Shown piece by piece: positions 1-39,857 of a stretch of 64,000 bases of DNA. The stretch lies in NCBI GenBank assembly GCA_963796455.1, contig CAWCLO010000005.1, positions 64,001-128,000 on the forward strand, read 5' to 3'. Source of the DNA: Candidatus Sulfomarinibacteraceae bacterium. Its GTDB lineage: Bacteria > Acidobacteriota > Thermoanaerobaculia > Thermoanaerobaculales > Sulfomarinibacteraceae. Below the pieces are notes generated by a model, which saw nothing but the letters and a program-made list of their open reading frames with translations, made no database searches and had not been told where the DNA came from. The translations under genes and the position numbers were made by a program. Positions within the stretch are counted from its first letter, which is position 1; each line of letters opens with the position of its first letter.

Positions 1-351
1 GCGGTTGCCCTTGTCCGCGTCCGTGTCCTTGCCCGAATTGCAGCGGCAGCGACAGTGTCCAGGGGCAGCGACAGGGATCAGCGATCAGAGGCAGAAATCA
101 GGGGCAGCGACGGCGTGATCACCTCCGGGTCGTTCAATAAAAGGAACAGCCGTTGTGGTGTCGGCGTCTCGCCTGCCCACCGTGCGGCCGAGACGGCCGC
201 ACCACCAAGGGCGGAGTCCCGAAGAAACGAGTGCTGTTCACTGTCCCGGCCGCTGATCGCTGACGCTGATGACTGAACACTGCCGCTGGCGACTGTTTGC
301 TGCCGCTGTCCCTGTGCGCTATCCGAGACTCTGTCTTGGACAAGAGTGATC
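1..351 (+). mobile_element. Gene-less derivative of the four-helix-bundle (4HB) repeat element; left end cut off by the window edge
   Basis: Shares CCCGAATTGCAGCGGCAGCGACAG with 21757-21780, the arm CACCTCCGGGTCGTTCAA (120-137) and the right end CTGTCTTGGACAAGAGTGATC (331-351) with the full copies. No 4HB ORF. Confidence 0.75.
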
Positions 352-8651: not shown

Positions 8652-9082
8652 ATCACTCTTCTCCAAGACAGAATCTCGGACGGCGTTCAGGGACAGCGCC
8701 AGCGACAAGGAACAGCAGACAGCGTTGGCGAACGGTAGTCAGCGGCAGCGGCAGTGTCCAGGACAGCGGCAGGTAGCAGGGACGGCGAACAGCGATCAGT
8801 GTTCAGCGGCAGCGGTCAGGATTTCAGACGGCGACGTGGCCACCTCCGGGTCGTTCAACGGAAGGGGTAGCCGGTAGGCGGCCGCCCGTGACGCGATGAA
8901 CACCTTCGATCAAGTCGGTGCCATGACCCGGCGGCTGTTGAATCCAATGAAGTGAGTGTTATTCGCGGTGCGCTGGCGCTGATCACTGCCGCTGCCGCTG
9001 ATTCCTGTTCCCTGACGCTGTCTACCGTTCTCTGTCCCTGTCCCTGCACGCTTTCCGAGATTCTGTTTTGGACAAGGGTGAT
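8652..9082 (+). mobile_element. MITE-like internal-deletion derivative of the 4HB element
   Basis: 29-bp terminal inverted repeats (8652-8680 vs 9054-9082, 26/29 match). Retains the leader arm GTGGCCACCTCCGGGTCGTTCAA and only the last ~20 codons of the 4HB gene (MNTFDQVGAMTRRLLNPMK*). Confidence 0.8.
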
Positions 9083-19807: not shown

Positions 19808-20661
19808 GATCACTCTTGTCCAAGACAGTGTCTCAGACAGCGTCCAGCTGCAGCGGCAGAGTCCAGTGGCAGCGACAGCCGACAGGGTCAGCTAACAGAA
19901 GTCAGCGACAGCGAACAGCGCTCAACTCTTCGGATTCAATAGCCGCCAGGTCATGGCACGGACCTGATCGAAGGCTGTCATCGCTTTGCTGGCTCCATTT
20001 TGACTGATCGCCCCGGCGTGGGCGAGGAGCTCCAAGTGGCTGTCGACCTCTTTCGCCGAAGCGTAGGCGATTCTCCAGTGGTTCGATCGGTCTCTACCGA
20101 AACGGCCGTGGCCTTCTGCCAGGTTCGCAGGGACTGAACTCGCCGATCGGACTACCTGATCGGCTATGGATTTCAGCGGAGCGGGAACTCTCATCACGAG
20201 TTTGATCGTGATGCCTGCTGCTTCGAGTGCTTTCGAGTGGGCAATGAGGTTGGTGTTCGTGGCGGCTGAGGACATGGTCACCTCCGGGTCGTTCATGCCC
20301 ACACCCACAAGCCGGTGTGGTGGCCGATGTCAAGGATGCCCTGCACCCTGCCTGTCCTTGACATCGGCCGCCCACCGGCTACCCCTTCCTTGGAACGACC
20401 CGGTGGTGGCCACGCCGTCACTGCACCTGATCGCTGGCCCTGAACACTGCCCGCTGCCCGCTGCCCGCTGCCCGCTGTCCCTGTTCGCTGTTGCCTGTCG
20501 CTGCCGCTGGAAACTGTCGCTGCCGCTGCAATTCGGGCACCCGCACGGGCACGGACTCGGGCGCGGGGCAACCGCGAACGGGAAACGCCAAAAACCAACC
20601 CGTAACCCTCGTGTTCTCAGGTGCGCAACCTCATGCCTATTTGTTTTGGACAGCAGTGATC
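19808..20661 (-). mobile_element. 4HB repeat element, full copy A
   Basis: Ends GATCACTCTTGTCCAAGACAG / TTGTTTTGGACAGCAGTGATC (imperfect IR); hairpin leader; 4HB gene; collinear with 21644-22508 and 38841-39736. Confidence 0.8.
19922..20275 (-). CDS. Four-helix-bundle protein (TIGR02436 / 23S-rRNA-IVP-like), copy A
   Basis: DQVVRSASSVPANLAEGHGR and IAYASAKEV match the family pattern Q..R(A/S)A.S(I/V)..N(I/L)AEG..R; GGAGGTG RBS; 117 aa. Confidence 0.85.
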   Translation of the reverse strand: MSSAATNTNLIAHSKALEAAGITIKLVMRVPAPLKSIADQVVRSASSVPANLAEGHGRFGRDRSNHWRIAYASAKEVDSHLELLAHAGAISQNGASKAMTAFDQVRAMTWRLLNPKS

Positions 20662-20720
20662 CAGCATCCAGCGTCCTCGTAGCTTGTTGCTTGCAGCGAG
20701 CAAGGAATTGAGCGAGCTCT

Positions 20721-21455
20721 CTACTCCTCCGGTTCGGAGGTGAACCGGTAGCCGACTCCGCGGACCGTGTGGAAGTGGACGGGGTGGCGGGGGTCGTTCT
20801 CGAAGGTCTTTCTGAGACGGTGGACAAAGGTATCGAGGGTTCTCGTGGAGGTGTCGAAGGTGTAGCCCCACACTCTCTCCAGGAGCTCTCCGCGGGTCAG
20901 CACCCGCCCGTCGTTTTCCGAAAAGAACCGCACCAGCATGACCTCACGTTCGGTGAGCGCCACCGACCCGTCGCTGGTGGTGGCACGCATGGTGTTCAGA
21001 TCGACTTCACAGCTGCCTATTTGAACCAGAGGACCGCTTCGGGCGGGAGTTTGAGCCCACTCGGCGCGGCGCAGAATGCCGCGCACCCTGAGGACCAGTT
21101 CTTCCACCAGAAAGGGTTTGGTCAGATAATCATCGGCGCCGAGCTGCAGACCGAGGATCCGGTCGGCGTCGCTCCCCCTGGCGGTGAGAAACAAAATCGG
21201 GATCAGATTGCCGGCGGTTCGTAGTTGTCGACAGACTTCGAAACCGTCAATTCCCGGCAACATGATGTCGAGGATGAGGAGCTCGTAGTCTGCCTCGGGG
21301 TTTGCCAGTGCCTCGAGGCCGGCCTCTCCGGTGGCAGTCCATTTGAAGGAAAAACCCTCGAGTTCGAGATTGCGGCACAGACCCTCGGCGAGCGGTCCGT
21401 CGTCTTCGACGACCAACAGACGGGTCGGTTGGTCCGCAAGTTGTGGATCGTTCAC
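20721..21455 (-). CDS. OmpR/PhoB-family response regulator (orphan)
   Basis: VVEDD, LDIMLPG, GADDYLTKPF, winged helix TVRGVGYRF. Confidence 0.93.
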   Translation of the reverse strand: MNDPQLADQPTRLLVVEDDGPLAEGLCRNLELEGFSFKWTATGEAGLEALANPEADYELLILDIMLPGIDGFEVCRQLRTAGNLIPILFLTARGSDADRILGLQLGADDYLTKPFLVEELVLRVRGILRRAEWAQTPARSGPLVQIGSCEVDLNTMRATTSDGSVALTEREVMLVRFFSENDGRVLTRGELLERVWGYTFDTSTRTLDTFVHRLRKTFENDPRHPVHFHTVRGVGYRFTSEPEE

Positions 21456-21908
21456 TACTTAATTGTAGCGTGAAACTGTTTTTACAAGGGGTGCTGGGCG
21501 CTAGATACTCGATTCCCGATGCTCGATACGACAAGATCATCTGTCGATTCTCACCCCTGTCGAGAGTTTCATTGGGTTCTTTTCTGGATTTGTCGATGGC
21601 AGCGGTTGGGGAGACAGGCTGAATCGAGGATCCAGTACCTGGCATCACTGCTGTCCAAAACAGGTCGTCACCTGAAGTTTCCCACCTGACAACACGTGGT
21701 TTACGGGTTGGATTTTGGCATATCCGGTTCGCGGTTGGCCCCTACCCGATCCCGATCCCGAATTGCAGCGGCAGCGACAGCGTCCAGCGTCAGCGACGGC
21801 AACAGCGAACAGGGACAGGGGGCAGTGTTCAGGAACAGCGAACAGGGACAGAGATCAGTGTTCAGCGACAGAGAGCTGCGGCAGCAGTCTGGAGTTCATG
21901 TGGCGAAG

Positions 21909-22046
21909 TGGCCACCACCGGGTCGTTCAACAGAAGGGGTAGCCGGTGGGCGGCCGATGTCAAGGACAGGCAGGGTGCAGGGCATCCTTGACATCGGCCG
22001 CCACACCGGCTTGTGGGTACGGGCATGAACGACCCGGAGGTGACCA
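21909..22046 (+). promoter_or_regulatory. Nested double stem-loop leader sequestering the 4HB RBS (also at 20275-20412 and 39333-39470)
   Basis: Outer stem 21909-21929 / 22026-22046 (19/21) covers GGAGGTG and the A of ATG; inner stem 21949-21966 / 21985-22002 is a perfect 18 bp plus an 8 bp extension. Confidence 0.75.
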
Positions 22047-22399
22047 TGTCCAACGCCGCCACGAACTCAATCCTCGTTGCCCACTCAAAAGCCCTCGAAG
22101 CAGCAGGAATCGCGATCAAACTCGTGATGAGGGTTCCAGCTCCGCTGAAGTCCATAGCCGATCAGGTCATCCGGTCGGCAAGTTCGGTCCCCGCGAACCT
22201 GGCAGAAGGTCACGGCCGATTCGGTAGAGACCGATCGAACCACTGGAGAATCGCCTACGCCTCAGCCAAAGAGGTCGACAGCCACTTGAAGCTCCTCGTC
22301 CACGCTGGGGCGGTCAACCGGAATCGAGCCAGTGAAGCGATGAAGGCCTTCGATCAGGTCCGTGCCATGACCTGGAGGCTGTTGAACCCGACAGAGTGA
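22046..22399 (+). CDS. Four-helix-bundle protein, copy B
   Basis: Same motifs; 16 substitutions vs copy A and 7 vs copy C over 117 aa (manual count). Confidence 0.85.
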   Translation: MSNAATNSILVAHSKALEAAGIAIKLVMRVPAPLKSIADQVIRSASSVPANLAEGHGRFGRDRSNHWRIAYASAKEVDSHLKLLVHAGAVNRNRASEAMKAFDQVRAMTWRLLNPTE

Positions 22400-22571
22400 G
22401 TGCTGTTGCCTGTCGCTGACGCTGTCTGCCGTTCCCTGTCTCTGTCTGTCTCTGTCTCTGTCGCTGTCCCTGATCGCTGTCGGAAACTCTGTCTTGGACA
22501 CGAGTGATCCTGCATCCAGCATCCTGCATCCAGGAGCCAGCATCCAGAAAGCGGGCGGTTTGGAATGCCGG

Positions 22572-23576
22572 CTACGGAGAGGTCGAGTTGAGTCCGACGA
22601 ATGTTCCGTCGTTACGCCGACAGAGGATCCGCATCAGGGTGGCAAAACGCACACCGGTATGTTCTCCGGCACCGGCCACCATGAAAACCGTCGGAAATCC
22701 GATGGCGTGAATCCGCACCTTCCGTTTGCCGTCGCGACCGGTGGTGTTGAGGTCGTCAACCGTTCGCACGACGCTGTCGATCGATGGGCCGGTGAACTCG
22801 TCGCCCAGGACGTAAATTGAAATACGGTGATTGGGATTGGCAAAGGTCCGGATGGCGCGGGTGATGCCTTCGACCGGACTGGAGTTGGAAAAGACGCTCC
22901 AAGAACGTAAGCGCGAGATCACCGCCTTGCGCCGGCCGGGGGTGTCTGGGATCCATTTTCCGGCATATTGCGAGTACATGTACTGCCCCATGTCGTTCAT
23001 GATCTGCATGCCTTTGACCTTGGGGTACGTGTCCAGCACCTGCGTCATCTTCTCCACCACCGCAGGCCACGCATGGTGATACATCGAACCGGATGTGTCG
23101 ATCACGAAAATGATGTACTCGCTGTCGACCGGGATACCCCCCACCGCAGCGTCCCGTTGTCGCCGCATCTGGCTCTGGTCGAGCAAGCGCCGCATCTCTT
23201 CGGTCAGATCCTGTTGTGCCGCCAGCATCCGGCCCTCGAGGATGTCCTGAACCTCGGAGAGCTGTGAGCTGGCGGCGTACTCACCACGAATTTCAGAGAG
23301 ATCACCGCGGAGGCGGGCGATCCCCTCCTGTTCGATCGAAACCTGTTGCTGGCGGGTGCGGAGCCTGCGATCGAGAATTGCTGTTTCGCCACGAATCTCG
23401 AAAATTTCCTCTTCGAGCCGGGCGATCAAACTGTCGAGATCGATCCGAGCATCCTCGATCTTTTGCGGCTCACCGAGTTTGGTCAACACCAGCAGGAGCA
23501 CGATGGCGCCGAAGCCGCAACACACGACATCCAGAAAGGACAGCGAGAAAACCTCGAATTCGCGGCGTCTTCTCAT
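22572..23576 (-). CDS. ExbD-like N-terminal TM (SFLDVV..GFG) + coiled coil + vWA domain protein
   Basis: TM containing conserved Asp; MIDAS motif DTSGS; LGDEF. Confidence 0.75.
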   Translation of the reverse strand: MRRRREFEVFSLSFLDVVCCGFGAIVLLLVLTKLGEPQKIEDARIDLDSLIARLEEEIFEIRGETAILDRRLRTRQQQVSIEQEGIARLRGDLSEIRGEYAASSQLSEVQDILEGRMLAAQQDLTEEMRRLLDQSQMRRQRDAAVGGIPVDSEYIIFVIDTSGSMYHHAWPAVVEKMTQVLDTYPKVKGMQIMNDMGQYMYSQYAGKWIPDTPGRRKAVISRLRSWSVFSNSSPVEGITRAIRTFANPNHRISIYVLGDEFTGPSIDSVVRTVDDLNTTGRDGKRKVRIHAIGFPTVFMVAGAGEHTGVRFATLMRILCRRNDGTFVGLNSTSP

Positions 23577-24664
23577 GGCCAGTCCCTGGCGATGCTCATG
23601 AAGGAACCCCGGCTGCGCATCGCGACCTTCCAGAACTCGCTGGCGGCCAGGGGATCTCCTTCCATCGGGAAGAGGATCACGTTGACCGGGACGCCGCTCG
23701 GTAGTTGTTCCAATGCGCGGCTGAAAAGCCGCAGACGTTGTTGAGGAGAAATGGTCGTCGAGCGGGCCGCTTTGTTGCCGACCGTCGGAAGACCATCGGT
23801 CAATACGATCACATTGTCGGGACGCGGGTTCATCTGAGAGGCGACGCCAAAGGCGTGGAAAAGGCTGGTTCCCTTCCCGGGAACGATCGCGCGAAGGTTG
23901 CGGACGGCGCCGTCCAGCACCTTGCGATCGCTGCCATCGAGCCAGGTGCCACCGGTGTCGGGGAGCACCGGGGCCGCCTCGGTATTGAAGCTGTAGATCT
24001 GGAACCGGCTGTCGCGCGGAATCTGGGTCGTCAGCCAGTCAACGGTCGCCAGATTCTGCTGCCACTTGGCCGCCCGTACCTTTTCGTTGTCGGGCAGGTT
24101 CCGGCGCCGGATCACGTTGACCAGGGTACTGCCGAGCATGGAAGCCGAGGCGTCCACCAGAAAGAGGATCCGTTTTCCGCCGACCTTGAGACCGGTCAGA
24201 TATTGCCGGTCGCCATCGCCGACAAAGGTCCGCACCCTGTCTCCCGGAGTCTCTTGCGATGGCAGGGAAGCGGAGAGGCGGCGGGCCTCCTCCTCCAGGG
24301 AGCGGAGATCGGTTTGGAGCCGGTTGATGTGCTCCCGACGGGCCAGCGTTGAGGCATCGAATGTCGCGAGCTCGACCCGGATCTCCTCGAGAGCCTCGAT
24401 CAAACGGCGGGCGAGACCCTGGGCCAGAGCCCGCTCCTCGTCGGTCTCTCGGACCGAGTTGCGCAGCTCCACCAGATTTCGATGACCCTCCAGAACCTCG
24501 CGCTCGAGGCGGTTGACCTCTCCCTGAAGATCAGAAGTGACCGTGGCCTCGTGGTCGCGAACCGCCCCGTTGATGATCATGAAGAGCAGAATGACCGCCC
24601 CCAGGCCGCAGGTCATCGCGTCCAGGAAGGAGAGCCCGATCGGGTTGACGCTTCGGGTCACCAT
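23573..24664 (-). CDS. ExbD-like N-terminal TM (SFLDAM..GLG) + coiled coil + vWA domain protein
   Basis: TM with Asp; MIDAS DASAS; LTDGLP. Confidence 0.75.
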   Translation of the reverse strand: MVTRSVNPIGLSFLDAMTCGLGAVILLFMIINGAVRDHEATVTSDLQGEVNRLEREVLEGHRNLVELRNSVRETDEERALAQGLARRLIEALEEIRVELATFDASTLARREHINRLQTDLRSLEEEARRLSASLPSQETPGDRVRTFVGDGDRQYLTGLKVGGKRILFLVDASASMLGSTLVNVIRRRNLPDNEKVRAAKWQQNLATVDWLTTQIPRDSRFQIYSFNTEAAPVLPDTGGTWLDGSDRKVLDGAVRNLRAIVPGKGTSLFHAFGVASQMNPRPDNVIVLTDGLPTVGNKAARSTTISPQQRLRLFSRALEQLPSGVPVNVILFPMEGDPLAASEFWKVAMRSRGSFMSIARDWP

Positions 24665-24665
24665 C

Positions 24666-26021
24666 TCACTTCGCCAGCGTGACGAGCAGGATTTCGTTGG
24701 AACCGACTCGGAGGCGGTCCCCCGTCACCACCTCGGTGGGACCTCTGATCGCTTCGCCGTTGATGAAAACCTGGGCGTTGGGCGGAGCCTCGATGATGGC
24801 CCTGCCGCGATCGATGCGGACCCGGGGCAGGTGGCCGATTTCAGGGTCGGAACCGTCAGTCGGAGCAGTCTCGTTGCTCGCGGTGAGACCCAGCGCCTGG
24901 CTCGACAGTTGATGGGCGACACCGTTGATGACGACGTGGGTCGGCACATTTTCGTGCGCGGCATTCCCGCTCTGCCGATCCACAGCGACCGTCATAGGGG
25001 CCGGTTTCTTTGCATCGTATCCGGGAAGCCGGGTGATCAGCCGCAGCTTTGGACCTTCCGAGCAGATGATCTCGGCCCAGTTGAGCGCCGTGCTGCCGGC
25101 GGCAGCCGGATGGAGGGCGACGATTTCCATATCTTCGGATTCAGAAAGGTGGGCCGCCAGCCCCGGCAAAGCCGCCGCGCGATCACCGAGGAGCAGGGTG
25201 ATGGGCCCTTCCTCGCGGTTTCGGCTGATCAGGTTGCGCACGATGTCGTACGGGTGGGATGCGGCTTCGACCAATTCGCGGCGCTCGATCTCGATGGAGT
25301 GGCGCCGGCCTCCCGATGAGATCGCCACTTCGGCCGACTGCCGGTCGGCGAGAGTCGCCAGGTGCGTATGGAGCTGGATATAGAGGATCTGTTCGGTGGC
25401 GGCCTGGTGGAGCGGGTCGAAACGGGTCGTGCGGACAAAATGCCGAGAAATGGCGCGGGCCCACAGGTCGTAAAGATTGACCAGGCCGACTTGGGACTCT
25501 TCGACAACGGACCGGCGCACGACCTCGTCGCCATGTTCGAGAACCGTCAGGACAGCACGGTGGAGATGAAAATCGAGGTGGAGGCAATGGCGCCGGGTTT
25601 CACGGTCGGCGCATGAAGCGACGGCCACATCCACGAGGCCCCGAGCGGGCATCGTGCAGGCCTGGGCGATTCCGAGAAGAAGACCGAGTTGTTCGCCGGA
25701 GAAGGTCCCGGGCACCGCCATGATGACCTCGTCCGCCGTGCGCCCGGTCGCGTCCCAGATCTGCGACAAATGAGCGTGAGCCAGGTCCGCGGTCCTGAGG
25801 TGACCAGGGTAGGGACGTCCGAGTTCCCGGGTGCTGAGTTGCTGCCAGAAGCGGCTGTGCAGACGGCGGGGTTTGAGCCGCGCGTTGCTTGCTGCATCGA
25901 GCCCGATCTCGAGCTGATCGCCATCGGAGATGGCGAGACCTGGGTTCGCCAGCGAGACCTTGCCGCGGCTGCTCACCGTGACGATCCCGGAATCCACCAA
26001 CTCGAGGGCCAGCCGTTCCAT
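24666..26021 (-). CDS. Degenerate Hsp70/actin-like domain + C-terminal FHA-like domain protein
   Basis: VIMAVPGTFSGEQL..L..A..C....GLVD.AVA resembles the Hsp70 NBD; C-terminal VFING...VTGDRLRVG resembles FHA. Confidence 0.55.
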   Translation of the reverse strand: MERLALELVDSGIVTVSSRGKVSLANPGLAISDGDQLEIGLDAASNARLKPRRLHSRFWQQLSTRELGRPYPGHLRTADLAHAHLSQIWDATGRTADEVIMAVPGTFSGEQLGLLLGIAQACTMPARGLVDVAVASCADRETRRHCLHLDFHLHRAVLTVLEHGDEVVRRSVVEESQVGLVNLYDLWARAISRHFVRTTRFDPLHQAATEQILYIQLHTHLATLADRQSAEVAISSGGRRHSIEIERRELVEAASHPYDIVRNLISRNREEGPITLLLGDRAAALPGLAAHLSESEDMEIVALHPAAAGSTALNWAEIICSEGPKLRLITRLPGYDAKKPAPMTVAVDRQSGNAAHENVPTHVVINGVAHQLSSQALGLTASNETAPTDGSDPEIGHLPRVRIDRGRAIIEAPPNAQVFINGEAIRGPTEVVTGDRLRVGSNEILLVTLAK

Positions 26022-26025
26022 TTGC

Positions 26026-26853
26026 TTAGATGCCCCCACGCAGATCTGCTGATGCGGCGCCGGCCTGGAGATGGCGAATCAGGTGGGTGTCGACATAGCT
26101 TTCGGTATCGAGCACCAGCCGCTCCTGCCGCAGCTGGAGCTGGTGGAGCAGAAACATCAGGACGATGGAGATCAGGAGGGCGATGAAGGTCGAGTTGAAG
26201 GCGATGCCGAGGTTGCGGGTGACACCGGTGATGTCTCCCTCGACGGCGCGGTGGGCCTGGCCGAGAGCGGTCCCGATGCCCCGCACCGTTCCGATGAACC
26301 CGATCGAAGGAATCGCCCACGCGATGTAGCGCACCATGGCGAGTTCTGAGTCGAGGCGTTCCGACTCGGTGTCGGCGGCGGCGCGAGCAGTGTCGGATGC
26401 GTCCTGGATGCTGCCGGTGGCACCGAAGCGGTGGAGGGCGGCGAGCAGCGCGCGCGGCAGCAGCAGGCGTTTTTTGCCCGTCGGCAGCGCCTCGATCTGG
26501 CGTGCGTATTCCCGAGAGTCTTCGGGCAGGATGCGCACTCCATCGGCGACCGGGACCAGTTCGTCTTCGAGGAGCTGGCTCTCCCGCGCGGTGGTGATGC
26601 CCTTTGAGGCCATGATCGCGATGGCCCACAGCATGAGGACAAAACAGGCCTCTTGTTCGAAATCGCGAACGATGACCCACACCGATCGTTCCTGGATGTA
26701 CTCGGGATCGGCTGCCATCCGGGCCGATTGTTCGGCCATGAAGGTGTCCGCTTTGGGTCTCACAATCGTCACGTAGACCGCATGAACGATGATCAGGGCG
26801 ACCACCAGCGAAGCGAGCTGAAAGACAAAATCGACGGAATCATTTCGACGCAT
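26026..26853 (-). CDS. MotA/TolQ/ExbB proton-channel family protein
   Basis: AIPSIGFIGTVRGI and LGIAFNSTFIAL signature helices. Confidence 0.9.
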   Translation of the reverse strand: MRRNDSVDFVFQLASLVVALIIVHAVYVTIVRPKADTFMAEQSARMAADPEYIQERSVWVIVRDFEQEACFVLMLWAIAIMASKGITTARESQLLEDELVPVADGVRILPEDSREYARQIEALPTGKKRLLLPRALLAALHRFGATGSIQDASDTARAAADTESERLDSELAMVRYIAWAIPSIGFIGTVRGIGTALGQAHRAVEGDITGVTRNLGIAFNSTFIALLISIVLMFLLHQLQLRQERLVLDTESYVDTHLIRHLQAGAASADLRGGI

Positions 26854-26860
26854 GTTGGCC

Positions 26861-27064
26861 TCAGATATCAGTCGGAAACGCGACCGCGCTGTCCGCAGGT
26901 AGCTTTTCGGTTGGTTGAAAATCTGGCAGTGGGGTCGCTCCGGTTTCCGTGCCCTGGGGCTCGGCTGCCGGTGAAGCACCGGCGGCCACCAGCCAGCCCG
27001 AAGCCAGTATGAGGGCCGCGGCCAAAACTGTGAGAAGGACCCGGTATTTCGTGATGGCTCTCAT
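26861..27064 (-). CDS. Small exported protein ending AVAFPTDI
   Basis: Signal-peptide-like N-terminus; tightly packed in the operon. Confidence 0.6.
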   Translation of the reverse strand: MRAITKYRVLLTVLAAALILASGWLVAAGASPAAEPQGTETGATPLPDFQPTEKLPADSAVAFPTDI

Positions 27065-27077
27065 TTTTCTCTCTCTT

Positions 27078-30565: not shown

Positions 30566-30568
30566 GGC

Positions 30569-31847: not shown

Positions 31848-31848
31848 T

Positions 31849-32652
31849 TCAGTTGCTCCCGGATGAGGAAACCGACGCCTTGTAGCGTCGGTATTCGTCC
31901 CAGAGTTTTTCGCGCAACTCGGGGTCCTGCTCCGTCATGGCGGCCTCGCGGAGTTGTCGGGCCACGATGTCATCGTCAGATCCATCGCCGACATCGGTCG
32001 GGACTTCAGAGGATCCGGTGCCTCCGGGGCCCGATCCGCCACCTACCGAACCGGCAGAATCGCCGCCCTGTTCTCCGCTGGTCCCCGATCCGCCTTCCGC
32101 GGCACTGTCGCTTTGGTCGGATGATGACCCGGGTCCCGATGCGGACGAAGATGAGCCACCGGGTGGGGGTCCTCCGACCCCTCCGCGGGCCGCTGCCTCG
32201 GCGGCGAGGCGCTGCAGCTCTTCACGCATTTTCTGGTCGAATTCAGCGGTCGAGGAACCGAGCTGGTCTTCGAGGGCCGAGGTTGCTTCGTCGCTGGAAT
32301 CTGCGCCGCCGGGAGGTCTCTCGCCGCCGCTTTGACCACCCTGCATACCCGCCCCGCCCCCGGGCGAAGCCTCTTGACCCGATTCGCCGTCTCCGGCACC
32401 TTCAGATCCGCCGCCGGTCGATGCGGCTCCCTCGGCACCGGTTTCACCGCCGCCGCCCTCTCCGCCGCCGGTCTGACCGCCTCCGGCGGCGGAAGATCCC
32501 TGGCCGGCTGATTCAGCGCTTGCCCCGGGCATTTCTTCGGGTGTTTCGGGAGGTGCTTGCTGGTTGTTGGAACCACTCGAAGCGCACCCGAAAAGCAGGA
32601 CTGCGATGAGGGTCATTCCGGCACCGAGCAGTATTTGTTCTATTGTCTTCAT
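31849..32652 (-). CDS. Gly/Ser-rich lipoprotein with C-terminal DDDIVARQLREAA...LWDEYRRYK helix
   Basis: Lipobox LFGC; low-complexity body. Confidence 0.7.
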   Translation of the reverse strand: MKTIEQILLGAGMTLIAVLLFGCASSGSNNQQAPPETPEEMPGASAESAGQGSSAAGGGQTGGGEGGGGETGAEGAASTGGGSEGAGDGESGQEASPGGGAGMQGGQSGGERPPGGADSSDEATSALEDQLGSSTAEFDQKMREELQRLAAEAAARGGVGGPPPGGSSSSASGPGSSSDQSDSAAEGGSGTSGEQGGDSAGSVGGGSGPGGTGSSEVPTDVGDGSDDDIVARQLREAAMTEQDPELREKLWDEYRRYKASVSSSGSN

Positions 32653-32855
32653 TGTTCGTACTCTCTCAATCACATCAACGTTCCCGGAAGGGAAAACGGA
32701 GTTGACACAGGAACGCATTCCGAACTCTAACATGCACATCCTGTGCCGAAGCCGGGTGGACATATTTTCGGAGTTGTGACTGATCAACGCGTGTTACAAT
32801 TTGCAGCCGCTTTCCCCGCCGTCCGAGCGGGGCGAGATCGTGCCCGGAGGTTTGT

Positions 32856-33374
32856 ATGAGGGGCTTTTCGCGGTTGTCTGCGTTTGTGGTCATGGTGCTG
32901 CTGGTAGCGCCGGCCGTGGCCGGCCAGGTGGGTTTTCTGGACGCCGAGCGGGCGGTCTTTTCGGTCGACGAAGGCAAACGGCAGCAGGCGGCGCTCGAAG
33001 AATGGGCAAAGACCCGGACGGAAGAGTTGCAGCGGATGCAGTCCGAAGTCGCGGAGCTCACGAATCAGCTCAACCGACAGCGTGCGGTGGCCGCACCCGA
33101 CGCGCTTTCAGAACTCGAGAACCGGGCCCGGCAGGCCAACAGGGCTCTCGAGGATGCCGATCGGAATTTCAAACGCGAAGTCGAGAGCAAACAAAGAGAA
33201 TTGCTCGCAGAGGTGGCCGCGAGAGTGCGCAGCGTGGCCGGCGAGTATGCCCTTGAAAACGACTTCGATGCGGTCTTCCTGATCGACGCCCAACCTCTCG
33301 TCTATATGAAGGAAACAGCCGACCTGACCGAAACGGTGATCCGGATCTATAACGAAAAATACCCGGTGAACTGA
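32856..33374 (+). CDS. skp: OmpH/Skp outer-membrane chaperone
   Basis: Signal peptide, VGFLD, long coiled coil, DLTETVI. Confidence 0.8.
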   Translation: MRGFSRLSAFVVMVLLVAPAVAGQVGFLDAERAVFSVDEGKRQQAALEEWAKTRTEELQRMQSEVAELTNQLNRQRAVAAPDALSELENRARQANRALEDADRNFKREVESKQRELLAEVAARVRSVAGEYALENDFDAVFLIDAQPLVYMKETADLTETVIRIYNEKYPVN

Positions 33375-33414
33375 CGCTATTGCTGCGTTTTCACGGGATA
33401 TACTCACCCGACCC

Positions 33415-36222
33415 ATGGTGAGATCATTTTCGGTCGTTGCAGCAGTTCTCGTGCTCGTCGCCGGTATTTCCATCGTCGACGCGGGCGAGAATGACCCGCA
33501 CCATGACCTGACGGTGGTCGTCGAGAGCCCGCCTACCCGGCTCGATGCCGGTGACGTGGTCTCGGTGGTCCTCGAGATCACGAACGACGGCTCGTTGTCC
33601 TGGTCGACCGACGACGGGTTCGCCCTGGCCTATCATTGGCTCGATCTTCACGGCGAGCCGGTCGTGTGGGACGGTCGCCGGACAGCCTTGCCGAGAGTGA
33701 TGGCCGCCGGTGATTCGGTCGAAATGGAGGCGATCCTCGAAGCGCCTCCCCAAGCCGGTGAGTATTTTCTGGTCTGGGACCTTGTACACGAGCGGGTGTT
33801 GTGGGTTTCAGAGGTCGATCCGACTCCGGTCACACCAATTCCAATCTCGGTCTCGGTCCAGACGAGCCACCGCTTTTCCCTCCAGAGCGCCGACCCGCCA
33901 AGGGTGATGGTGGCCGGGTCCCAGACCGCCATGGATATCCGGCTCCGCAACGACGGCACCCGGGTGTGGCCGGAGGATGGTACCGTCAACGCCTCGTATC
34001 AGTGGTTGTCGCTCGGTGGTGACCGAGTCCCCGGGGAAGGACACGGCGTCCTCCTGGAGGGACGGCGGACCAGGTTTCAAGACACCGTCAGCCAGGGCGA
34101 ATCCGCCAGCATGAGGATCGTCATCGATTCCCCACCGAGAGGGGGGCTTTACCGCCTGCAGATCGACATGGTCGAGGAGGGGGTGTGCTGGTTTTCGGAT
34201 CGCCAGCCCGACCCGCCACCGGCGCGAACGGTCCTGGTCATCGCCAATCCGCTGACATCGCCCGGCTGGTGGGCGTTTTTGAGCCTTCTTGGTGCTGCTG
34301 CCGCAGCGGCAACCTTGCATCGCGGCGGACCTCCCGCCCTGGTCGGGATCTTTGCCGCAGGGGATGTCATCTGGTTGGTGGGCTCGTTGGTGCTCAAACA
34401 GTCCTTTGTCCTGGCCGGTGCCGTGAATAGACCAGGCGTCGAAGGGTGGCTGCTCATGGTGGCCGGTGCGGCGGCGATCGCGCTGTTGACCCGTATCTTG
34501 CCCGTCCGATTTCGCGCCTGGGGCTGTTGGCTGGCCGCAGCGGCGGCGACCCTGGTTCTCTGGGGCGATGCGGTCTATCTTCGTTTTTTTGGAGATCTTC
34601 CGGGCCCCGCCGCCCTGTCCGCCGTCGGTCAGGTGGGCCAGATCGAAGCAAGTGTCCGGAGTCTCCTGATGGCTTCCGATCTGTGGCTGTGGCTGGATCT
34701 GCTGCCGGGCATCGTTGTGGTCTTGGTTGCGAGACGGCTGCAGCTTCGATCGGGCCGGTGGTTGCATCGCGGTGTGGTGCTGGTCCTGATTGTTTTGGTC
34801 TTGCCCGGAGTCGTGACGGCGAAACGGCTCGAGGTCGAACAGGGGAGGCGCCTGCGACAGGTCTTTCGAAGGGTTCGTGTGGCCAAGAATGTGGGCATCC
34901 TGAATCTCCACGGGATTGAAATCGGGCGACAGCTCGCTGGTGTGTTTTCGCGCGCGAAGCTGAGTCCCGAGGAAGAACGGGAAATCGTCGACTGGTTCCG
35001 TGAGCGCGCACCGTTGCGTGCGGGTGTCGGACCGTGGTTCGGTGCTGCGGATGGCTTCAATCTCATCATGCTGCAGGTAGAGAGCCTGCAGGGCTTTGTC
35101 GTGGGTCTGGAGATCGAAGGCCGGGAAGTCACCCCATTCCTCAATGAATTGCGGGACCGTGCTCTGTATTTTTCTAATTTCGGTGATCAGACCCTCGATG
35201 GCCGGTCGTCGGATTCCGAGTTCAGCACCCAGGTTTCGCTGCTGCCCTCGACCGGAGGCGCGGCCGCCTTCCTCCACGACGACAATGATTTCACCGGTTT
35301 GGCGGAGGTGCTCGCTGCCGAGGGCTACGAGACCCTTTCGGCGGTGCCCTTCGATGGGAGCTTTTGGAATCGGCGAACCACCCATCGCGCCTATGGTTAT
35401 GGGAAGAGTCTGTTCACGGAGGATTTTCCTACCGGCGAAAAAGTGGGATGGGGTCTCAACGATCGCGATTTTCTGCGCTTGATGGCGAATCGTGTGGGCC
35501 GTGTCGAACAGCCGTTTGCCGCCTATCTGTTGACCCTCTCCCTGCATCATCCCTTTGATGGATTTCCGGTTCGTTTTCAGACCTTCGACGTCGGTCCGTG
35601 GGCGGGCACGCCCTTCGGGAATTTCCTTCATACGATGCATTTCTTCGATCAGGCCCTGGCCGGGTTTTTTGCCGAATTGGAGAGAGAAGGCCTTGCGGAT
35701 AAGACCGTGGTTGCCCTCTGGGGAGATCATGATGCCGGTTTCAAGTGGCGCTCGGAGATCGCCGAAGTGACGGGATTCAGCCATGACAACATCGGCTGGT
35801 ATCTGAGCCAGGAGGTTCCACTCTTCATCGTCGTTCCGGGTCGGGAAGGGGCCGGTGGCGAGCTCTTGCTTTCGACCGGCCACGTGGATGTCGCTCCGAC
35901 GCTGATCGCACTGTTGGGTATTGATCCAGCCCCCTACGCTTTTGTCGGTCGAAACCTGCTCGGAGAACCCGGTGATCAACCGATTGTCGGGGAGTTCGAT
36001 TGTTGGAGAGACTCCAGACACCTCTTCATCCGGGGCAGTGGAAATCTTGCAGACGGCAGCTGTATCGACGCCACGAATCTGAAGGTCCTTCCGGTCTCAG
36101 AGTGTGCTGCAGGCTTTGCCGTCGCCGAAAAAACGGTGGCGGTTTCAGCTGCGGTCCTGGAACACGATCTGCAACGCGAGATTCACCTCCGCTTGATTGG
36201 CGAAACGAGCCACTCAGAGTGA
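33415..36222 (+). CDS. LTA-synthase-family sulfatase with two N-terminal Ig-like domains
   Basis: QVESLQ, TPFLN, GRSSDSEF, FWNR, LSLHHPF, WGDH, HVDVAPT; 5 TM segments; N-terminal NDG..W / YHW / DLV.E...W repeats. Confidence 0.85.
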   Translation: MVRSFSVVAAVLVLVAGISIVDAGENDPHHDLTVVVESPPTRLDAGDVVSVVLEITNDGSLSWSTDDGFALAYHWLDLHGEPVVWDGRRTALPRVMAAGDSVEMEAILEAPPQAGEYFLVWDLVHERVLWVSEVDPTPVTPIPISVSVQTSHRFSLQSADPPRVMVAGSQTAMDIRLRNDGTRVWPEDGTVNASYQWLSLGGDRVPGEGHGVLLEGRRTRFQDTVSQGESASMRIVIDSPPRGGLYRLQIDMVEEGVCWFSDRQPDPPPARTVLVIANPLTSPGWWAFLSLLGAAAAAATLHRGGPPALVGIFAAGDVIWLVGSLVLKQSFVLAGAVNRPGVEGWLLMVAGAAAIALLTRILPVRFRAWGCWLAAAAATLVLWGDAVYLRFFGDLPGPAALSAVGQVGQIEASVRSLLMASDLWLWLDLLPGIVVVLVARRLQLRSGRWLHRGVVLVLIVLVLPGVVTAKRLEVEQGRRLRQVFRRVRVAKNVGILNLHGIEIGRQLAGVFSRAKLSPEEEREIVDWFRERAPLRAGVGPWFGAADGFNLIMLQVESLQGFVVGLEIEGREVTPFLNELRDRALYFSNFGDQTLDGRSSDSEFSTQVSLLPSTGGAAAFLHDDNDFTGLAEVLAAEGYETLSAVPFDGSFWNRRTTHRAYGYGKSLFTEDFPTGEKVGWGLNDRDFLRLMANRVGRVEQPFAAYLLTLSLHHPFDGFPVRFQTFDVGPWAGTPFGNFLHTMHFFDQALAGFFAELEREGLADKTVVALWGDHDAGFKWRSEIAEVTGFSHDNIGWYLSQEVPLFIVVPGREGAGGELLLSTGHVDVAPTLIALLGIDPAPYAFVGRNLLGEPGDQPIVGEFDCWRDSRHLFIRGSGNLADGSCIDATNLKVLPVSECAAGFAVAEKTVAVSAAVLEHDLQREIHLRLIGETSHSE

Positions 36223-36420
36223 GTCCTGAGAGTGAGCCCTTCGCTCTCGATGCGCGAGCTCGGCCCCAACGGGGCGATCAGCGATCGGCAGGAACAATTA
36301 TCAAAGTATCGTCTCGAGTGGCCGACCGGCCGGAGCGAATAATCGGTGAGAAAACCGGGTTACAGTGCATGTTAGGATGGGTCCGTCCCACCACGCTGCA
36401 ACCGCAGTAAGGAGCATCAT

Positions 36421-37476
36421 ATGAATCAGAAGGCTGACAAAGTCAAAGCGCTGGAGACGGCAATCGGGCAGATCGAACGCCAGTTCGGCAAGGGCTCGGT
36501 GATGCGTCTCGGTGACAGTCCCAGAGTGCGTATCAACACCATCCCGACCGGCTCACTGACCCTCGATGCCGCCCTCGGGATCGGCGGCGTGCCGCGTGGC
36601 CGCGTGATCGAAATCTATGGGCCCGAATCATCGGGAAAAACCACTCTCGCTCTCCACATCATCGCCAATGCTCAGAAGACCGGTGGATTGGTGGCGTTCA
36701 TCGATGCGGAACACGCTCTCGATCCGGAGTACGCGGAAAACCTCGGTGTCAATCTCGACGAGTTGCTGATCTCGCAGCCGGATTTCGGTGAGCAGGCGCT
36801 GGAGATCGCGGAAACCTTGATTCGTTCCGGGTCGGTGGATGCGATCGTCATCGATTCGGTGGCCGCCCTGGTGCCGCGGTCGGAGCTCGAAGGCGATATG
36901 GGTGACGCCCAGATGGGTTTGCAGGCCCGGTTGATGTCGCAGGCTCTTCGCAAACTTGCAGGCATCGTCTCCAAGTCGAACACGAGCCTGATCTTTATCA
37001 ACCAGGTGCGCGAGAAGATCGGTGTCATGTTCGGCAACCCGGAGACCACGACCGGCGGGCGGGCCCTCAAATTCTACTCGTCGGTGCGGATCGATATCCG
37101 CCGGACCAGCGCCATCAAACAGGGCGACAAGGTGGTCGGAAATCGCACCAAGGCGAAGGTCGCGAAGAACAAGGTTGCCGCACCCTTCAAGGTGGCCGAA
37201 TTCGATATTCTCTACGGTGAGGGCATCTCTCTGACCGGCGAACTGCTCGATCTCGGGGTCGAGTACCGGATGGTCCAGAAATCTGGTTCCTGGTACTCCT
37301 ATGGCGAAACCCGGATCGGTCAGGGAAGGGAAGCGGCGCGCACCTTCCTCAAAGAAAATCCGGAAATCGCCGACGGAATCGAAATCAAGCTTCGCCAGGA
37401 ACTGGGTCTTTTGCCCGGAGCCGAGGTTGAAGAGGTTGCCGAGGAATCGGCGGACGCCGCGGAGAAATCGGAATAG
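36421..37476 (+). CDS. recA: Recombinase A
   Basis: [40 protein letters not shown]. Confidence 0.99.
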
Positions 37477-37538
37477 GCACCGGTCTTTTTCGGGTCGTTG
37501 CCTCTGACCGGCTGATACAATCTCAAGAGGAGAAATGA

Positions 37539-38675
37539 ATGAGGATGAGACTCCGTCAAAAAACCGCCTGTGTTTTTGCACTGACGATGCTGCTGACCGT
37601 CGGCATTGGCGCCCAGGGTCAGACGCAAGTCGAGCCCGATGACACGACCTTGCGATGGGTGCAGCGCGCCGTTGCGTGGTATCCCGACTCGACCTTCGAA
37701 TTGATCGAGAACAAACGTTTTCAGACCACCGCAGGCTCCTATCGCCTGGTGCGCATCGATCGAAAATGTGCCAGCCAAATGCTCAGCGGTCAGCCGTCGG
37801 CATTGGTGGACGAGGTCACCAACTCGGTGTGGCTGGGGTCGGTCGGCGAATTGCCCGTGGTGCGGGCGGGTGCGAGCACTGATGAGATCAAAACCTTTGT
37901 CGCGGGCTTTCTTCCGGAAGCTCTCAGCGCATCGATGGGTCTCAAGGCGAAGGTGGTCTGGGATGTCGGTCCGCGTCGTCCGGGAGCGTTGATTCCCATG
38001 GATTTGATGGTCCAGACCGGGTATGGAGAATACCGTCGCCCGGCCGCTGTGACCGCCGATGGAAAATACCTGGTGATGGCGACCGAGATGTCTCGCGACG
38101 AAGACCCGGTTGCGGCTCGCAAGCGCCGCTTCGCCAACAGCAAATACGTCATCTGGGATACCGAAAAGAAAGGCGATTCCAAGGTCGAAATCGTCGAGTT
38201 CTCGGACCTCGAGTGCCCGGCCTGCAAGAGCAAGTGGCCGCTGGTCGAGGAGGTTCTGGCCAAGAACTCCGCGACTGTTCGCCACGGCATGGTCAGTTTT
38301 CCGTTGACGATGATCCATCCGTGGGCGTTTCGCGCCGCCAGCGCCTCGTGGTGTGTCGCGCAGCAAAACCCCCAGTCGCTGATTCCATTCAAGGAGACCT
38401 TCTACTCGCTGCAGCGCGAGATGGAGGTTTCGCTGGTAACGGAAACCTCGGTCGATTTTGTGGCCGGTCAGGGTCTCGACGAAAGCGCTTTTCGCGGATG
38501 TTATCTGCGTGAAAGTTCCCTGGAGGCGGTTCACAAACAAATGGGTCTGGGTCAATTGATGGGTGTTCGCGCCACGCCGACATACTTTGTCAACGGCTGG
38601 CAGATCCAGGTCCCCGATGCGAGCTGGTTTCCGGCGTTTGTTGCCGACCTCGCAGCGGGCAAGGAGCCCAAGTAG
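37539..38675 (+). CDS. Exported DsbA/thioredoxin-fold protein
   Basis: Signal peptide; EFSDLECPAC; GVRATPTYFVNG. Confidence 0.85.
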   Translation: MRMRLRQKTACVFALTMLLTVGIGAQGQTQVEPDDTTLRWVQRAVAWYPDSTFELIENKRFQTTAGSYRLVRIDRKCASQMLSGQPSALVDEVTNSVWLGSVGELPVVRAGASTDEIKTFVAGFLPEALSASMGLKAKVVWDVGPRRPGALIPMDLMVQTGYGEYRRPAAVTADGKYLVMATEMSRDEDPVAARKRRFANSKYVIWDTEKKGDSKVEIVEFSDLECPACKSKWPLVEEVLAKNSATVRHGMVSFPLTMIHPWAFRAASASWCVAQQNPQSLIPFKETFYSLQREMEVSLVTETSVDFVAGQGLDESAFRGCYLRESSLEAVHKQMGLGQLMGVRATPTYFVNGWQIQVPDASWFPAFVADLAAGKEPK

Positions 38676-38979
38676 GCAGGGTTTGGAATAAGGAATTAGG
38701 AAGTTCATCGCACTCGAAGCCATCACAAACCGCAGAACGCGCAGATGAGCGCGGATAGAAGACCGCTTTCGCTTTCTACCTAGCCTGCTGCAAGAACCGG
38801 ATTTGCAGAGGGGTTGCCGGTCGCAAAATCCATGAGGCGGGATCACTCGTGCCCAAGTGCGAGTTTCGGACAGCGATCAGGGACGGCGGCAGCGATCAGC
38901 GTCAGAGACAGGGAACAGCGATTAGTGTTCAGCGTCAGCGTCAGCGAACAGCGGCCGGGACAGCGACAGCGAACAGCGC

Positions 38980-39333
38980 TCACTTCGTCGGGTTCAACAA
39001 CCGCCAGGTCATGGCACGGACCTGATCGAAGGCCTTCATCGCTTCACCGGCTCCATTCCGGTTGACCGCCCCAGCGTGGGCGAGGAGCTTCAAGTGGCTG
39101 TCGACCTCTTTCGCCGAGGCGTAGGCGATTCTCCAGTGATTCGACCGGTCTCTACCGACTCGGCCGTGCCCTTCTGCCAGATTCGCAGGGACCGAACTTG
39201 CCGACCGGATCACCTGGTCGGCTATGGATTTCAGCGGAGCTGGAACCCTCATCACGAGTTTGATCGCGATTCCTGCTGCTTCGAGGGCTTTCGAGTGGGC
39301 AACGAGGTTGGTGTTCGTGGCGGCGTTGGACAT
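38980..39333 (-). CDS. Four-helix-bundle protein, copy C
   Basis: Same motifs as copies A and B. Confidence 0.85.
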   Translation of the reverse strand: MSNAATNTNLVAHSKALEAAGIAIKLVMRVPAPLKSIADQVIRSASSVPANLAEGHGRVGRDRSNHWRIAYASAKEVDSHLKLLAHAGAVNRNGAGEAMKAFDQVRAMTWRLLNPTK

Positions 39334-39512
39334 GGTCACCTCCGGGTCGTTCATGCCCATTCCCACAAGCCGGTGTGGCGGCCGATGTCAAGGATGCCCT
39401 GCACCCTGCCTGTCCTTGACATCGGTCGCCCACCGGCTACCCCTTCTTTGGAACGACCCGGAGGTGGCCACTTCGCCACATGAACTCCAGACTGCTGCCG
39501 CTGCCGCTGCCG

Positions 39513-39554
39513 CTGATCACTGATCACTGATCACTGATCACTGATCACTGATCA
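39513..39554 (+). repeat. Tandem heptamer (CTGATCA)x6
   Basis: Perfect copies inside the arm of element C. Confidence 0.9.
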
Positions 39555-39857
39555 CTGACCGCTGTCCTCTGTCGCTGTTGCCTGTCGCTGACGCTGGACA
39601 CTGTCGCTGCCGCTGCAATTCGGGATCGGGATCGGGCACGGGCAACCGCTAACCAGATATGCCGAAACCAACCCGTAACCAACGTGTTTTCACGTTGGAA
39701 TCTTCACGTACCGATCTGTTTTGAACAGCAGTGATCCTGCATCCTGCGCCAGTATTCGCTCGAAACTGCAATCTACGTTACCTTTTCTGAAGCTCCGGCC
39801 AATGACTGGGCACTGGAGCTGGCCATGTCGAAGACCGATATTGCAGTGATGAAGCAC

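Follow-up and report, generated by a model that had tools for sequence, protein, structure and literature searches.

The repeated units found in the window, the stretch of 64,000 nt analysed here (Candidatus Sulfomarinibacteraceae bacterium, assembly GCA_963796455.1, contig CAWCLO010000005.1, positions 64,001 to 128,000 of the forward strand; coordinates below are those of the window), are very probably transposase-less mobile insertion cassettes with IS4-family inverted ends, whose movement most likely depended on an IS4-family transposase supplied in trans. This assignment follows from the combination of IS4-type ends, 9-bp target duplications, empty sites in related genomes and deletion derivatives. 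The passenger is a four-helix-bundle (4HB) gene preceded by a conserved hairpin.

Copy number and anatomy of the cassettes

The assembly consists of 5,024,069 bases in 10 contigs and is 90.5% complete. Matching of the unit across the assembly revealed a cassette family of 226 loci, far more than chance would give, which occupies 95,915 bp (~96 kb, 1.9% of 5.02 Mb). The five loci in 40 kb that an earlier, sequence-only reading of the window had reported are all members of this family. A tblastn search of the assembly with the 4HB protein gave 59 full-length matches, and 58 of the 59 extracted ORFs had a length of 117 aa (58 intact PF05635/TIGR02436 genes). There are 92 adjacent end pairs in the assembly, 74 of them spaced 250-1000 bp. 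The spacing has peaks at 400-500 bp (21 pairs) and at 800-900 bp (27 pairs), and none of the 92 pairs is spaced 1200-3000 bp.

The three collinear units described before proved to be real, with 20-base end motifs within one base of the earlier coordinates, and every part of the proposed anatomy (end motifs, ~100-bp block, CAG-rich arm, nested hairpin, gene, complementary arm) was found. The two further derivatives (1-351 and 8652-9082) are also genuine, both being gene-less copies. The features in the window are as follows.

19809..20660, minus strand: cassette copy U1, 852 bp between 20-base end motifs
19922..20275, minus strand: U1 four-helix-bundle gene, 117 aa and stop
21644..22508, plus strand: cassette copy U2, 865 bp, the reference copy
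21644..21663, plus strand: U2 left inverted end, target AT then CACTGCTGTCCAAAACAG; 19/20 identical to the right end of the G017 IS4-family IS
21664..21763, plus strand: U2 conserved subterminal block adjoining the left end, with homology to the corresponding part of the IS4-family IS
21764..21907, plus strand: U2 left arm with 7-base CAG-type repeats, whose number differs among copies
21908..22050, plus strand: U2 leader hairpin with outer stem, long middle stem and variable tip; GGAGG and the ATG start lie in the 3' strand
22046..22399, plus strand: U2 four-helix-bundle gene, 117 aa and stop
22400..22488, plus strand: U2 right repeat arm, complementary to the left arm
22489..22508, plus strand: U2 right inverted end, CTGTCTTGGACACGAGTG then target AT
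38842..39735, minus strand: cassette copy U3, 894 bp
38980..39333, minus strand: U3 four-helix-bundle gene, 117 aa and stop
1..350, plus strand: gene-less derivative, 437 bp in total, beginning 87 bases before the window
8652..9082, minus strand: gene-less derivative, 431 bp, with an internal deletion (reference ~314-684) common to copies at other loci

U1, U2 and U3 all lie between protein genes and none is located in a 23S rRNA helix. Neither a sigma-70-type promoter nor an intrinsic terminator was found in U2. The 4HB gene is the only Pfam-matching ORF of the unit; no transposase, recombinase or reverse transcriptase (RT) gene was found inside, in agreement with the earlier statement that the unit lacks a DDE, HUH, recombinase or RT gene. 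Folded as a whole, the unit (-403 kcal/mol, z -8.7) is predicted to pair its ends and its arms, so that a long stem of complementary ends carries the ORF in its loop, a trait resembling 23S rRNA intervening sequences (IVSs).

IS4-family relatives, target duplications and insertion sites

Autonomous IS4-family elements sharing ends with the cassettes were found in two other genomes, G017 and G043. The G017 IS is 1415 bp long and encodes a 403-aa transposase with DUF4372 and DDE_Tnp_1, which matches NF033592 'IS4 family transposase' with an E-value of 1.2e-74. One end of this IS is identical to the cassette left end in 19 of 20 positions, and past the first 20 bases the homology continues subterminally (z 4.3). 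The ends of the 1353-bp G043 IS, CACTGCTGTCC and CACTCTTGTCC, are the two end variants of the cassette, and the element has a perfect 9-bp duplication, GCGATCAGG. The ends of the cassettes are thus those of a known IS family, an outcome that the earlier reading had named as speaking against its interpretation: IS4, with autonomous copies in G017 and G043 and with 9-bp duplications.

The G017 transposase protein had 0 matches in the assembly of the window, which, with 90.5% completeness and 10 contigs, does not prove absence. The G017-type transposase is present in 1 of 25 genus genomes and in 16 of 201 class genomes. It was not found in G006 despite nearly identical cassette copies there, whose short end branches (0-0.023) point to a recent burst. 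Two candidate partners were rejected: the single PF01609 transposase of the assembly had no matching ends within 6 mismatches, and a 1731-bp IS with a 498-aa frame (G006, G004) had its own ends, the cassette-like motif being internal.

Target duplications were scored in 74 copies with CAC...GTG as ends, shuffled pairing serving as control. The end motifs are present as described before, except that the terminal AT/AT is part of the duplicated target, which leaves CAC...GTG, lying within 18-20-base inverted repeats, as the ends of the element itself. Only the 9-base register matched as target duplication: it was perfect in 21/74 copies and had at most one mismatch in 39/74 (3.1 and 10.3 in the shuffled control). 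Among the 27 copies away from heptamer arrays the corresponding numbers were 2 and 11 (shuffled, 0.09 and 0.91). This assignment superseded one in which the ends were ATCAC...GTGAT and 5 or 7 bp were duplicated. A clean 9-bp duplication was absent at U1 and U3 (4 mismatches in 9 positions each) and at the derivative 8652-9082 (7 mismatches in 9).

The preferred targets are GGATGCT-type heptamer arrays; a period-7 array adjoins 45/74 copies vs 0.75% of random positions. The idea that the flanking arrays are footprints, with a period equal to the duplication length, is contradicted by the ISL3-ended cassettes, which have 8-bp duplications (at most two mismatches in 18/20) and arrays of period 7 and 8. 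The hundreds of tandem arrays of period 6, 7, 8 and 9 in the genome also speak against it.

Comparison with congeners revealed empty sites. The U2 site is empty in nine of them (G022, G016, G018, G006, G004, G007, G005, G001 and G020), whereas the U1 site is empty in G004, G007, G001, G018 and G020 and occupied in G006. The copies are therefore not fixed at the same positions; fixation was an outcome that the earlier reading had named as speaking against a spreading element. The occupied U1 site of G006 may or may not descend from the same insertion as ours. In the public reads, which gave short contigs only, no contig joined across an empty U2 site. Deletion derivatives with common breakpoints occur at separate loci (314/570 in 4 paired copies, 305-313/684-689 in 5), which shows that gene-less derivatives have multiplied; the 4HB gene is therefore not needed in cis.

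The four-helix-bundle gene and its leader hairpin

In each of U1, U2 and U3 the ORF can be read as 128 aa from a GTG, or as 117 aa from an ATG that follows GGAGG. All three proteins match PF05635 (E 2e-15 to 5e-14, 52.8-57.2 bits, cut-off 33.8) and TIGR02436 (E 4e-16 to 8e-15, 55-59 bits, cut-off 24), so that the earlier assignment to TIGR02436 is confirmed. The reported protein identity of about 86-94% also holds, the values being 86% and 94% relative to the U2 copy at 22046. The AlphaFold2 model (pLDDT 94.9) has four helices, 2-27, 35-56, 60-86 and 92-113, and among solved structures sequence matches were obtained to 2gsc (E 1.9e-6) and 2rld (E 5.4e-4). As modelled, its 117 aa make up a plain four-helix bundle. 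Members of the 23S-IVS/S23p four-helix-bundle family occur widely and often in multiple copies, and we know of no function for the family outside DGR Avd. The protein had no match among the PADLOC defence families and the PHROGs phage families. Our literature search, which covered papers outside subscription-only access, found no paper on the 4HB gene as transposon cargo.

The dN/dS ratio, a check that the sequence-only reading had proposed, was 0.16 across 1540 pairs of 56 ORFs of the assembly. In 28 independent nearest-neighbour pairs it was 0.155, with 27 of the 28 pairs below 0.5. These values indicate that purifying selection keeps the gene intact in ~58 copies. One RNA-library run gave short contigs on the 4HB gene with 6-18 differences; the public reads, as short contigs only, provided no usable transcription evidence.

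The leader hairpin is ~140 nt long and spans the ribosome-binding site and the start codon. Judged by majority-base frequency (98-99% in the hairpin vs 86-98% across 25-base windows of the gene), it is better conserved than the coding sequence. Its folding energy is -100.9 kcal/mol (z -8.1). Among 133 distinct sequences, 16 of the 57 hairpin pairs have at least two Watson-Crick types (compensatory changes), with G-U and A-C cells about equally frequent (240 vs 196), a balance that fits a hairpin in RNA as well as in DNA and on either strand. No known RNA family reached the gathering score for the hairpin in the window; mir-138 (E 0.43) was dismissed as a chance-level match.

In the mechanism that we propose an IS4-family transposase would recognise the cassette ends, and would cut and paste the cassette. 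At the RNA level, the hairpin would keep read-through transcripts from being translated, and pairing of the arms would give an RNase III-type stem like that of rRNA intervening sequences. We suggest, tentatively, that the 4HB protein might act on the folded RNA or DNA of its own cassette.

Alternative explanations and known systems

Trans-mobilisation alone leaves the selection on the passenger gene in ~58 copies unaccounted for. The hairpin, the 4HB gene and the repeat arms might together be a selfish unit, which colonises IS4- and ISL3-type shells and rRNA helices and whose protein favours the movement or retention of its own cassette, for example through binding to the folded ends or arms and competition for the transposase. 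In most congeners the shells around the module of hairpin and 4HB gene are ISL3-ended, while here and in G006 they are IS4-ended, and GACAG-type repeat arms flank the module in both kinds of shell. In the 23S IVS of Coxiella, heptamer GACAGAT repeats are described upstream of the S23p ORF (PMC4990558). The selection on the gene in each copy and the conservation of the hairpin above that of the gene point the same way. Stated as parasitism on transposons, the module would replace the transposase in unrelated IS shells (IS4, ISL3) and sit in rRNA helices, the protein working on the folded nucleic acid of the module for movement, processing or retention; if true, this would be the first function for the 23S-IVS protein family and would account for the patchy spread of the family in multiple copies. 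We consider the selfish unit, and equally its parasitic version, unlikely. When 91 coding sequences were placed in a tree, the 36 from IS4 shells grouped in a single clade (support 100/99); one shell change suffices for this sample, which gives no sign of frequent shell-hopping. The multiplication of gene-less derivatives argues that the gene is dispensable in cis. In 26 related loci with neither end type there were almost no exact inverted repeats; some of these loci have, by eye, diverged ISL3-like ends.

Slightly less doubtful, on our estimate, is that the cassettes are immobile fossils and the 4HB genes a domesticated multi-copy family, each useful to the host, transposition being history only. 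This would agree with the lack of a cognate transposase among the matches in the assembly and with the age of most copies, whose nearest-neighbour CDS identity is mostly 90-95% and whose end branches in the tree are star-like (0.003-0.086). The low dN/dS between nearest neighbours fits as well, as does the U1 site, where comparison with G006 gave a dN/dS of 0.135 for the 4HB gene and 0.10 for the neighbouring response-regulator gene. However, the single-insertion descent of that site is unsure, since dS is 0.73 for the 4HB gene vs 1.37 for the neighbour and the flanks differ. One pair of copies at different loci of the assembly is 99% identical, and G006 has had a recent burst. Moreover, host benefit hardly accounts for ~58 near-redundant copies, and the protein has no PADLOC match. 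Far less credible is that the 4HB protein is a mobility enzyme or an Avd-like cofactor of reverse transcription and that the element spreads by a non-DDE mechanism. Database classification makes the family a relative of Avd (PMC10053308) and there is no enzyme gene within the unit, but a search of the assembly for RVT_1 (PF00078) gave 0 hits. The ends and the 9-bp duplication are of IS4-family type, the protein is a plain bundle, and copies devoid of the gene multiply. The earlier description of a spreading element with defined ends is supported. Of the two mechanisms offered with it, mobilisation in trans fits, whereas the IS4 ends and 9-bp duplications leave the other, an undescribed one in which the 4HB protein is the driver, without support.

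As a trans-mobilised cassette, the element has its nearest counterpart in MIC231 of Bacillus cereus (IS231, IS4 family), which is reportedly a mobile insertion cassette with IS4-family inverted ends around a passenger gene. MIC231 and passenger MITEs share with our cassettes the IS4-family ends around a passenger gene, the lack of an internal transposase, a target duplication of the family's length and the expected movement in trans. Unlike in MIC231, the cargo here is a 23S-IVS 4HB gene, accompanied by a conserved leader hairpin and by repeat arms complementary to each other. It is under selection in each copy, reaches a very high copy number (226 loci and 58 intact genes in a 5-Mb assembly) and occurs also within ISL3-type shells in congeners, whereas searches of the 90.5% complete assembly did not reveal its cognate transposase. 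With IS4-family elements (DUF4372 and DDE_Tnp_1, NF033592) the cassettes share end sequences, subterminal homology and the 9-bp duplication, but they have no transposase gene, their interior being the hairpin-4HB module. Duplications of 8-13 bp are given for most IS4 subgroups, and 9 bp for IS10, in PMC2266710. The 4HB protein resembles DGR Avd in the PF05635 relation made by database classification (PMC10053308); unlike for Avd, no reverse transcriptase was found in the assembly and the context is a multi-copy transposon. No template/variable repeat context of the DGR type was seen.

23S rRNA intervening sequences encoding S23p/IVP occur in Leptospira, Coxiella, Xanthomonas and others. They share with the cassettes the protein family and the placement of the ORF, which lies in a loop closed by a long stem of complementary ends; in Coxiella the likeness includes the GACAG-type heptamer repeats upstream of the ORF (PMC4990558). 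Unlike IVSs, the copies described here are intergenic and have IS4-type ends and 9-bp duplications. The same paper, PMC4990558, describes the Coxiella ORF as decaying and probably untranslated, whereas the gene here is under purifying selection and has a strong GGAGG; it also cites Lin et al. 2006 for the homopentameric ring of the Xanthomonas family protein. The paper recounts older ideas in which IVSs are remnants of transposons or mobile elements, and the origin of IVSs as mobile DNA appears there only as untested proposals (PMC4990558). For this idea the genome analysed here offers a concrete vehicle: its ends are of IS4 type, its insertion duplicates 9 bp, sites without it exist, and congeners have a shell of ISL3 type. 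The genome also supplies ~58 gene copies under selection and, over the start site, a hairpin with covariation. Movement by an IS4 transposase, the effect of the protein, binding to the hairpin or arms and processing by RNase III thereby become questions for ordinary assays.

Structure and abundance of the cassette

The window contains three collinear gene-bearing copies of the transposase-less cassette (U1 to U3; U2 served as reference) and two gene-less derivatives.

Cassette loci in the window
1-350, gene-less derivative
8652-9082, gene-less derivative
19809-20660, minus strand, full unit (U1)
21644-22508, plus strand, full unit (U2)
38842-39735, minus strand, full unit (U3)

In the left half of the full units an inverted end is followed by a roughly 100-bp conserved block, then by 7-base CAG-type repeats that make up one arm, and by a nested hairpin. 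The right half consists of one gene, encoding a 117-aa four-helix-bundle (4HB) protein, an arm complementary to the first and the opposite inverted end. Conservation of the arms ranges from 4 to 92% majority frequency among 31 full copies. In the predicted fold of the entire unit (-403 kcal/mol, z -8.7) the ends and arms are paired.

In the whole assembly (G000; 5,024,069 bases in 10 contigs, of which C5 contains the window; about 60% G+C) U2 matches 226 loci with a total length of 95,915 bp. Most of the 4HB gene is retained at 67 of them, the remainder being gene-less pieces or derivatives. A tblastn search yielded 59 full-length 4HB copies 83-100% identical to U2; in 58 of these the 117-codon frame is open, and 57 begin with ATG. 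Among 92 adjacent end pairs 74 are spaced 250-1000 bp, with peaks at 400-500 bp (21 pairs) and 800-900 bp (27 pairs). None of the 92 falls between 1200 and 3000 bp, so the G000 assembly has no larger version with cassette ends. Gene-less derivatives share internal breakpoints at separate loci (four with 314/570, five with 305-313/684-689), so these derivatives multiplied after gene loss. The G000 copies group by themselves in a star-like clade (end branches 0.003-0.086), and most are 90-95% identical to their nearest neighbour, one pair reaching 99%. A clade also unites the cassette genes of the congener G006, where end branches measure 0-0.023; many of these genes are nearly identical and IS4-ended, a pattern that indicates a recent burst in G006.

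Ends, duplications and insertion sites

The genome G017 carries a 1415-bp IS, whose 403-aa transposase matches DUF4372 and DDE_Tnp_1 as well as NF033592 'IS4 family transposase' (E 1.2e-74). One end of this IS is identical to the cassette left end in 19 of 20 positions, and similarity extends about 120 bases past the repeat (z 4.3 versus shuffles). G043, which belongs to a different family of the class, carries a 1353-bp IS whose transposase is 55% identical to that of G017. The ends of this IS, CACTGCTGTCC... and CACTCTTGTCC..., are exactly both cassette end variants, and the perfect 9-bp duplication GCGATCAGG flanks it. When the cassette flanks were re-read with CAC...GTG taken as ends, only the 9-base register yielded direct repeats: 21 of 74 copies had a perfect repeat and 39 had at most one mismatch (3.1 and 10.3 in shuffled pairing). 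For the 27 copies away from heptamer arrays the numbers were 2 and 11, versus 0.09 and 0.91. Models of 5- and 7-base duplications were rejected as an artefact of the usual AT at both duplication edges. By a table in PMC2266710, a 9-bp duplication fits the IS4 family. Given these IS ends and the 9-bp duplication, the shell, i.e. the ends enclosing the hairpin and gene, is IS4-derived, and the cassette belongs to the mobile-insertion-cassette kind. Its spread mechanism is ordinary: of the two alternatives in the sequence-only reading, the undescribed mechanism involving the 4HB protein is not supported, given ends that match IS4-family ISs and a 9-bp duplication.

The same reading had proposed to compare filled and empty sites, and this check bore out insertion. 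Among 24 congeners compared, the U2 site, flanked by genes for a response regulator and a vWA-domain protein, is empty in nine (G022, G016, G018, G006, G004, G007, G005, G001 and G020), and in G008 it holds a 471-bp gene-less derivative with a different shell type. The U1 site is empty in five (G004, G007, G001, G018 and G020) and filled in G006. Site occupancy and the gene-less derivatives show that the cassette is, or once was, mobile DNA. A single shared insertion at the U1 site of G000 and G006 is uncertain, because the 4HB gene has a dS of 0.73 versus 1.37 for the neighbour gene and the flanks differ.

A period-7 tandem array, nearly always of the GGATGCT type, adjoins 45 of the 74 copies, versus 0.75% of random positions, and of the 177 such arrays 90 have a cassette locus within 40 bp. 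Empty sites in relatives hold such arrays, often as inverted pairs (L008, L009, L015, L016). The idea that the arrays arose as stacked duplications, whose period would then match the duplication length, was tested and rejected. Short tandem arrays abound in G000: at a low TRF threshold it has 713 of period 6, 845 of period 7, 645 of period 8 and 556 of period 9. The cassettes' own arms account for part of the first two counts. Unit families are numerous (e.g. AGCATCC, AACTCCG, AATTCCG, AAAGGGAG), and intergenic regions of relatives contain short tandem arrays as inverted pairs.

The transposase and a second shell

For the trans-mobilisation reading the main gap is the missing transposase. G000 has one PF01609 transposase, with ends unrelated to the cassette, and one rve match; searches of G000 for RVT_1 and for an ISL3 transposase found none. 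The incomplete assembly of G000 yielded no G017-type transposase, nor, despite its cassette burst, did that of G006, likewise incomplete; the protein was detected in 1 of 25 genus genomes and 16 of 201 class genomes. No further multi-copy mobile genes were seen in G000 apart from two sets of ORFs, which by their motifs would be a putative IS91-like transposase (three copies, C6:37096-38933, C7:279899-281563 and C7:285081-286913) and a putative Y1/RAYT-like protein of 342 aa (two tandem copies, C4:1143372-1147449). G006 and G004 contain a 1731-bp IS (L028:892-2622, L024, L020) with a 498-aa open frame matching PF01609 (DDE_Tnp_1); it has its own ends (TAGCCCGCATATCTCAC) and, about 56 bases in from the left one, a motif resembling a cassette end.

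In most congeners the hairpin-gene module lies between other ends, which are those of an ISL3-family IS in G017 (PF01610, E 2.6e-69).

IS with the ends of the second shell
L146:948-2250 (G017), also L143 and L144, ISL3-family IS, 1303 bp, ends beginning GGCTCATCCGG

This IS itself sits within AACGTT-type 8-mer repeats. The ISL3-ended cassettes have 8-bp duplications, mostly at AACGTT-type sequence, with at most two mismatches in 18 of 20.

A tree was built from 91 coding sequences: 14 of 56 G000 copies, drawn at random, and every related locus whose frame was open, full-length and not a duplicate. All 36 IS4-shell rows fall into a single clade (support 100/99), and midpoint rooting places this clade among ISL3-shell rows that come from one MAG. 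A single shell change is enough for this tree, with no direction implied. The related loci (80 kept of 459 confirmed) come from records titled Acidobacteriota MAGs, including Thermoanaerobaculia, 'Ca. Sulfomarinibacteraceae' and Holophagae. Six loci (L077, L108, L122, L129, L133, L135) are in MAG records titled Alphaproteobacteria, Chondromyces or Methylomirabilota; their cassette genes nest among acidobacterial ones, reflecting either mis-binning or transfer. In more distant Acidobacteriota MAGs (L117, L142) the module lies between ends beginning about GGGGTTGGATTCAGGGGCAGAGACAG, which may be a third shell type.

The hairpin and the 4HB gene

The hairpin and the 4HB gene are the portion conserved between species. 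The hairpin, about 140 nt immediately 5' of the gene, is the most conserved part of the unit (98-99% majority frequency in 31 full copies, versus 86-98% per 25-base window for the gene), and has a folding energy of -100.9 kcal/mol (z -8.1). In the predicted outer stem the upstream strand is paired with a stretch containing GGAGG and ATG, and we infer that the hairpin would block translation of read-through RNA. At least two Watson-Crick types occur in 16 of 57 pairs (133 distinct sequences); G-U cells (240) and A-C cells (196) are about equal, a balance that favours neither RNA nor DNA and neither strand. No Rfam family matched the hairpin.

The 4HB gene matches PF05635 (E ~1e-15) and TIGR02436, both beyond the cut-offs, and a 16-copy profile matched two proteins of solved structure, 2gsc (E 1.9e-6) and 2rld (E 5.4e-4). 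The AlphaFold2 prediction is a four-helix bundle of high confidence (pLDDT 94.9). Among the 1540 pairs of 56 intact ORFs, dN/dS is 0.16 (mean dN 0.056, mean dS 0.357); over 28 independent nearest-neighbour pairs it is 0.155, and below 0.5 in 27. At the U1 site, G000 versus G006, it is 0.135, with 0.10 for the adjoining response-regulator gene. By these ratios the cargo is under selection. A distant paralogue outside the cassette family (C10:733028-733321 of G000) is 32% identical (tblastn E 2e-8).

The literature searched yielded no description of this cassette family. The cassette is real, very abundant and, judged by its ends, IS4-derived; its cargo is unusual and, by its substitution pattern, selected, and the role of this cargo is amenable to test. 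The paired ends and arms of the predicted fold resemble those of 23S rRNA intervening sequences (IVSs), for which the account in PMC4990558 mentions old, untested proposals that they are transposon remnants or mobile elements. According to the same account, the Coxiella IVS is cut out by RNase III at such a stem and carries GACAGAT heptamers in tandem upstream of the S23p ORF; these heptamers are close to the GACAG-type arm repeats of the cassettes.
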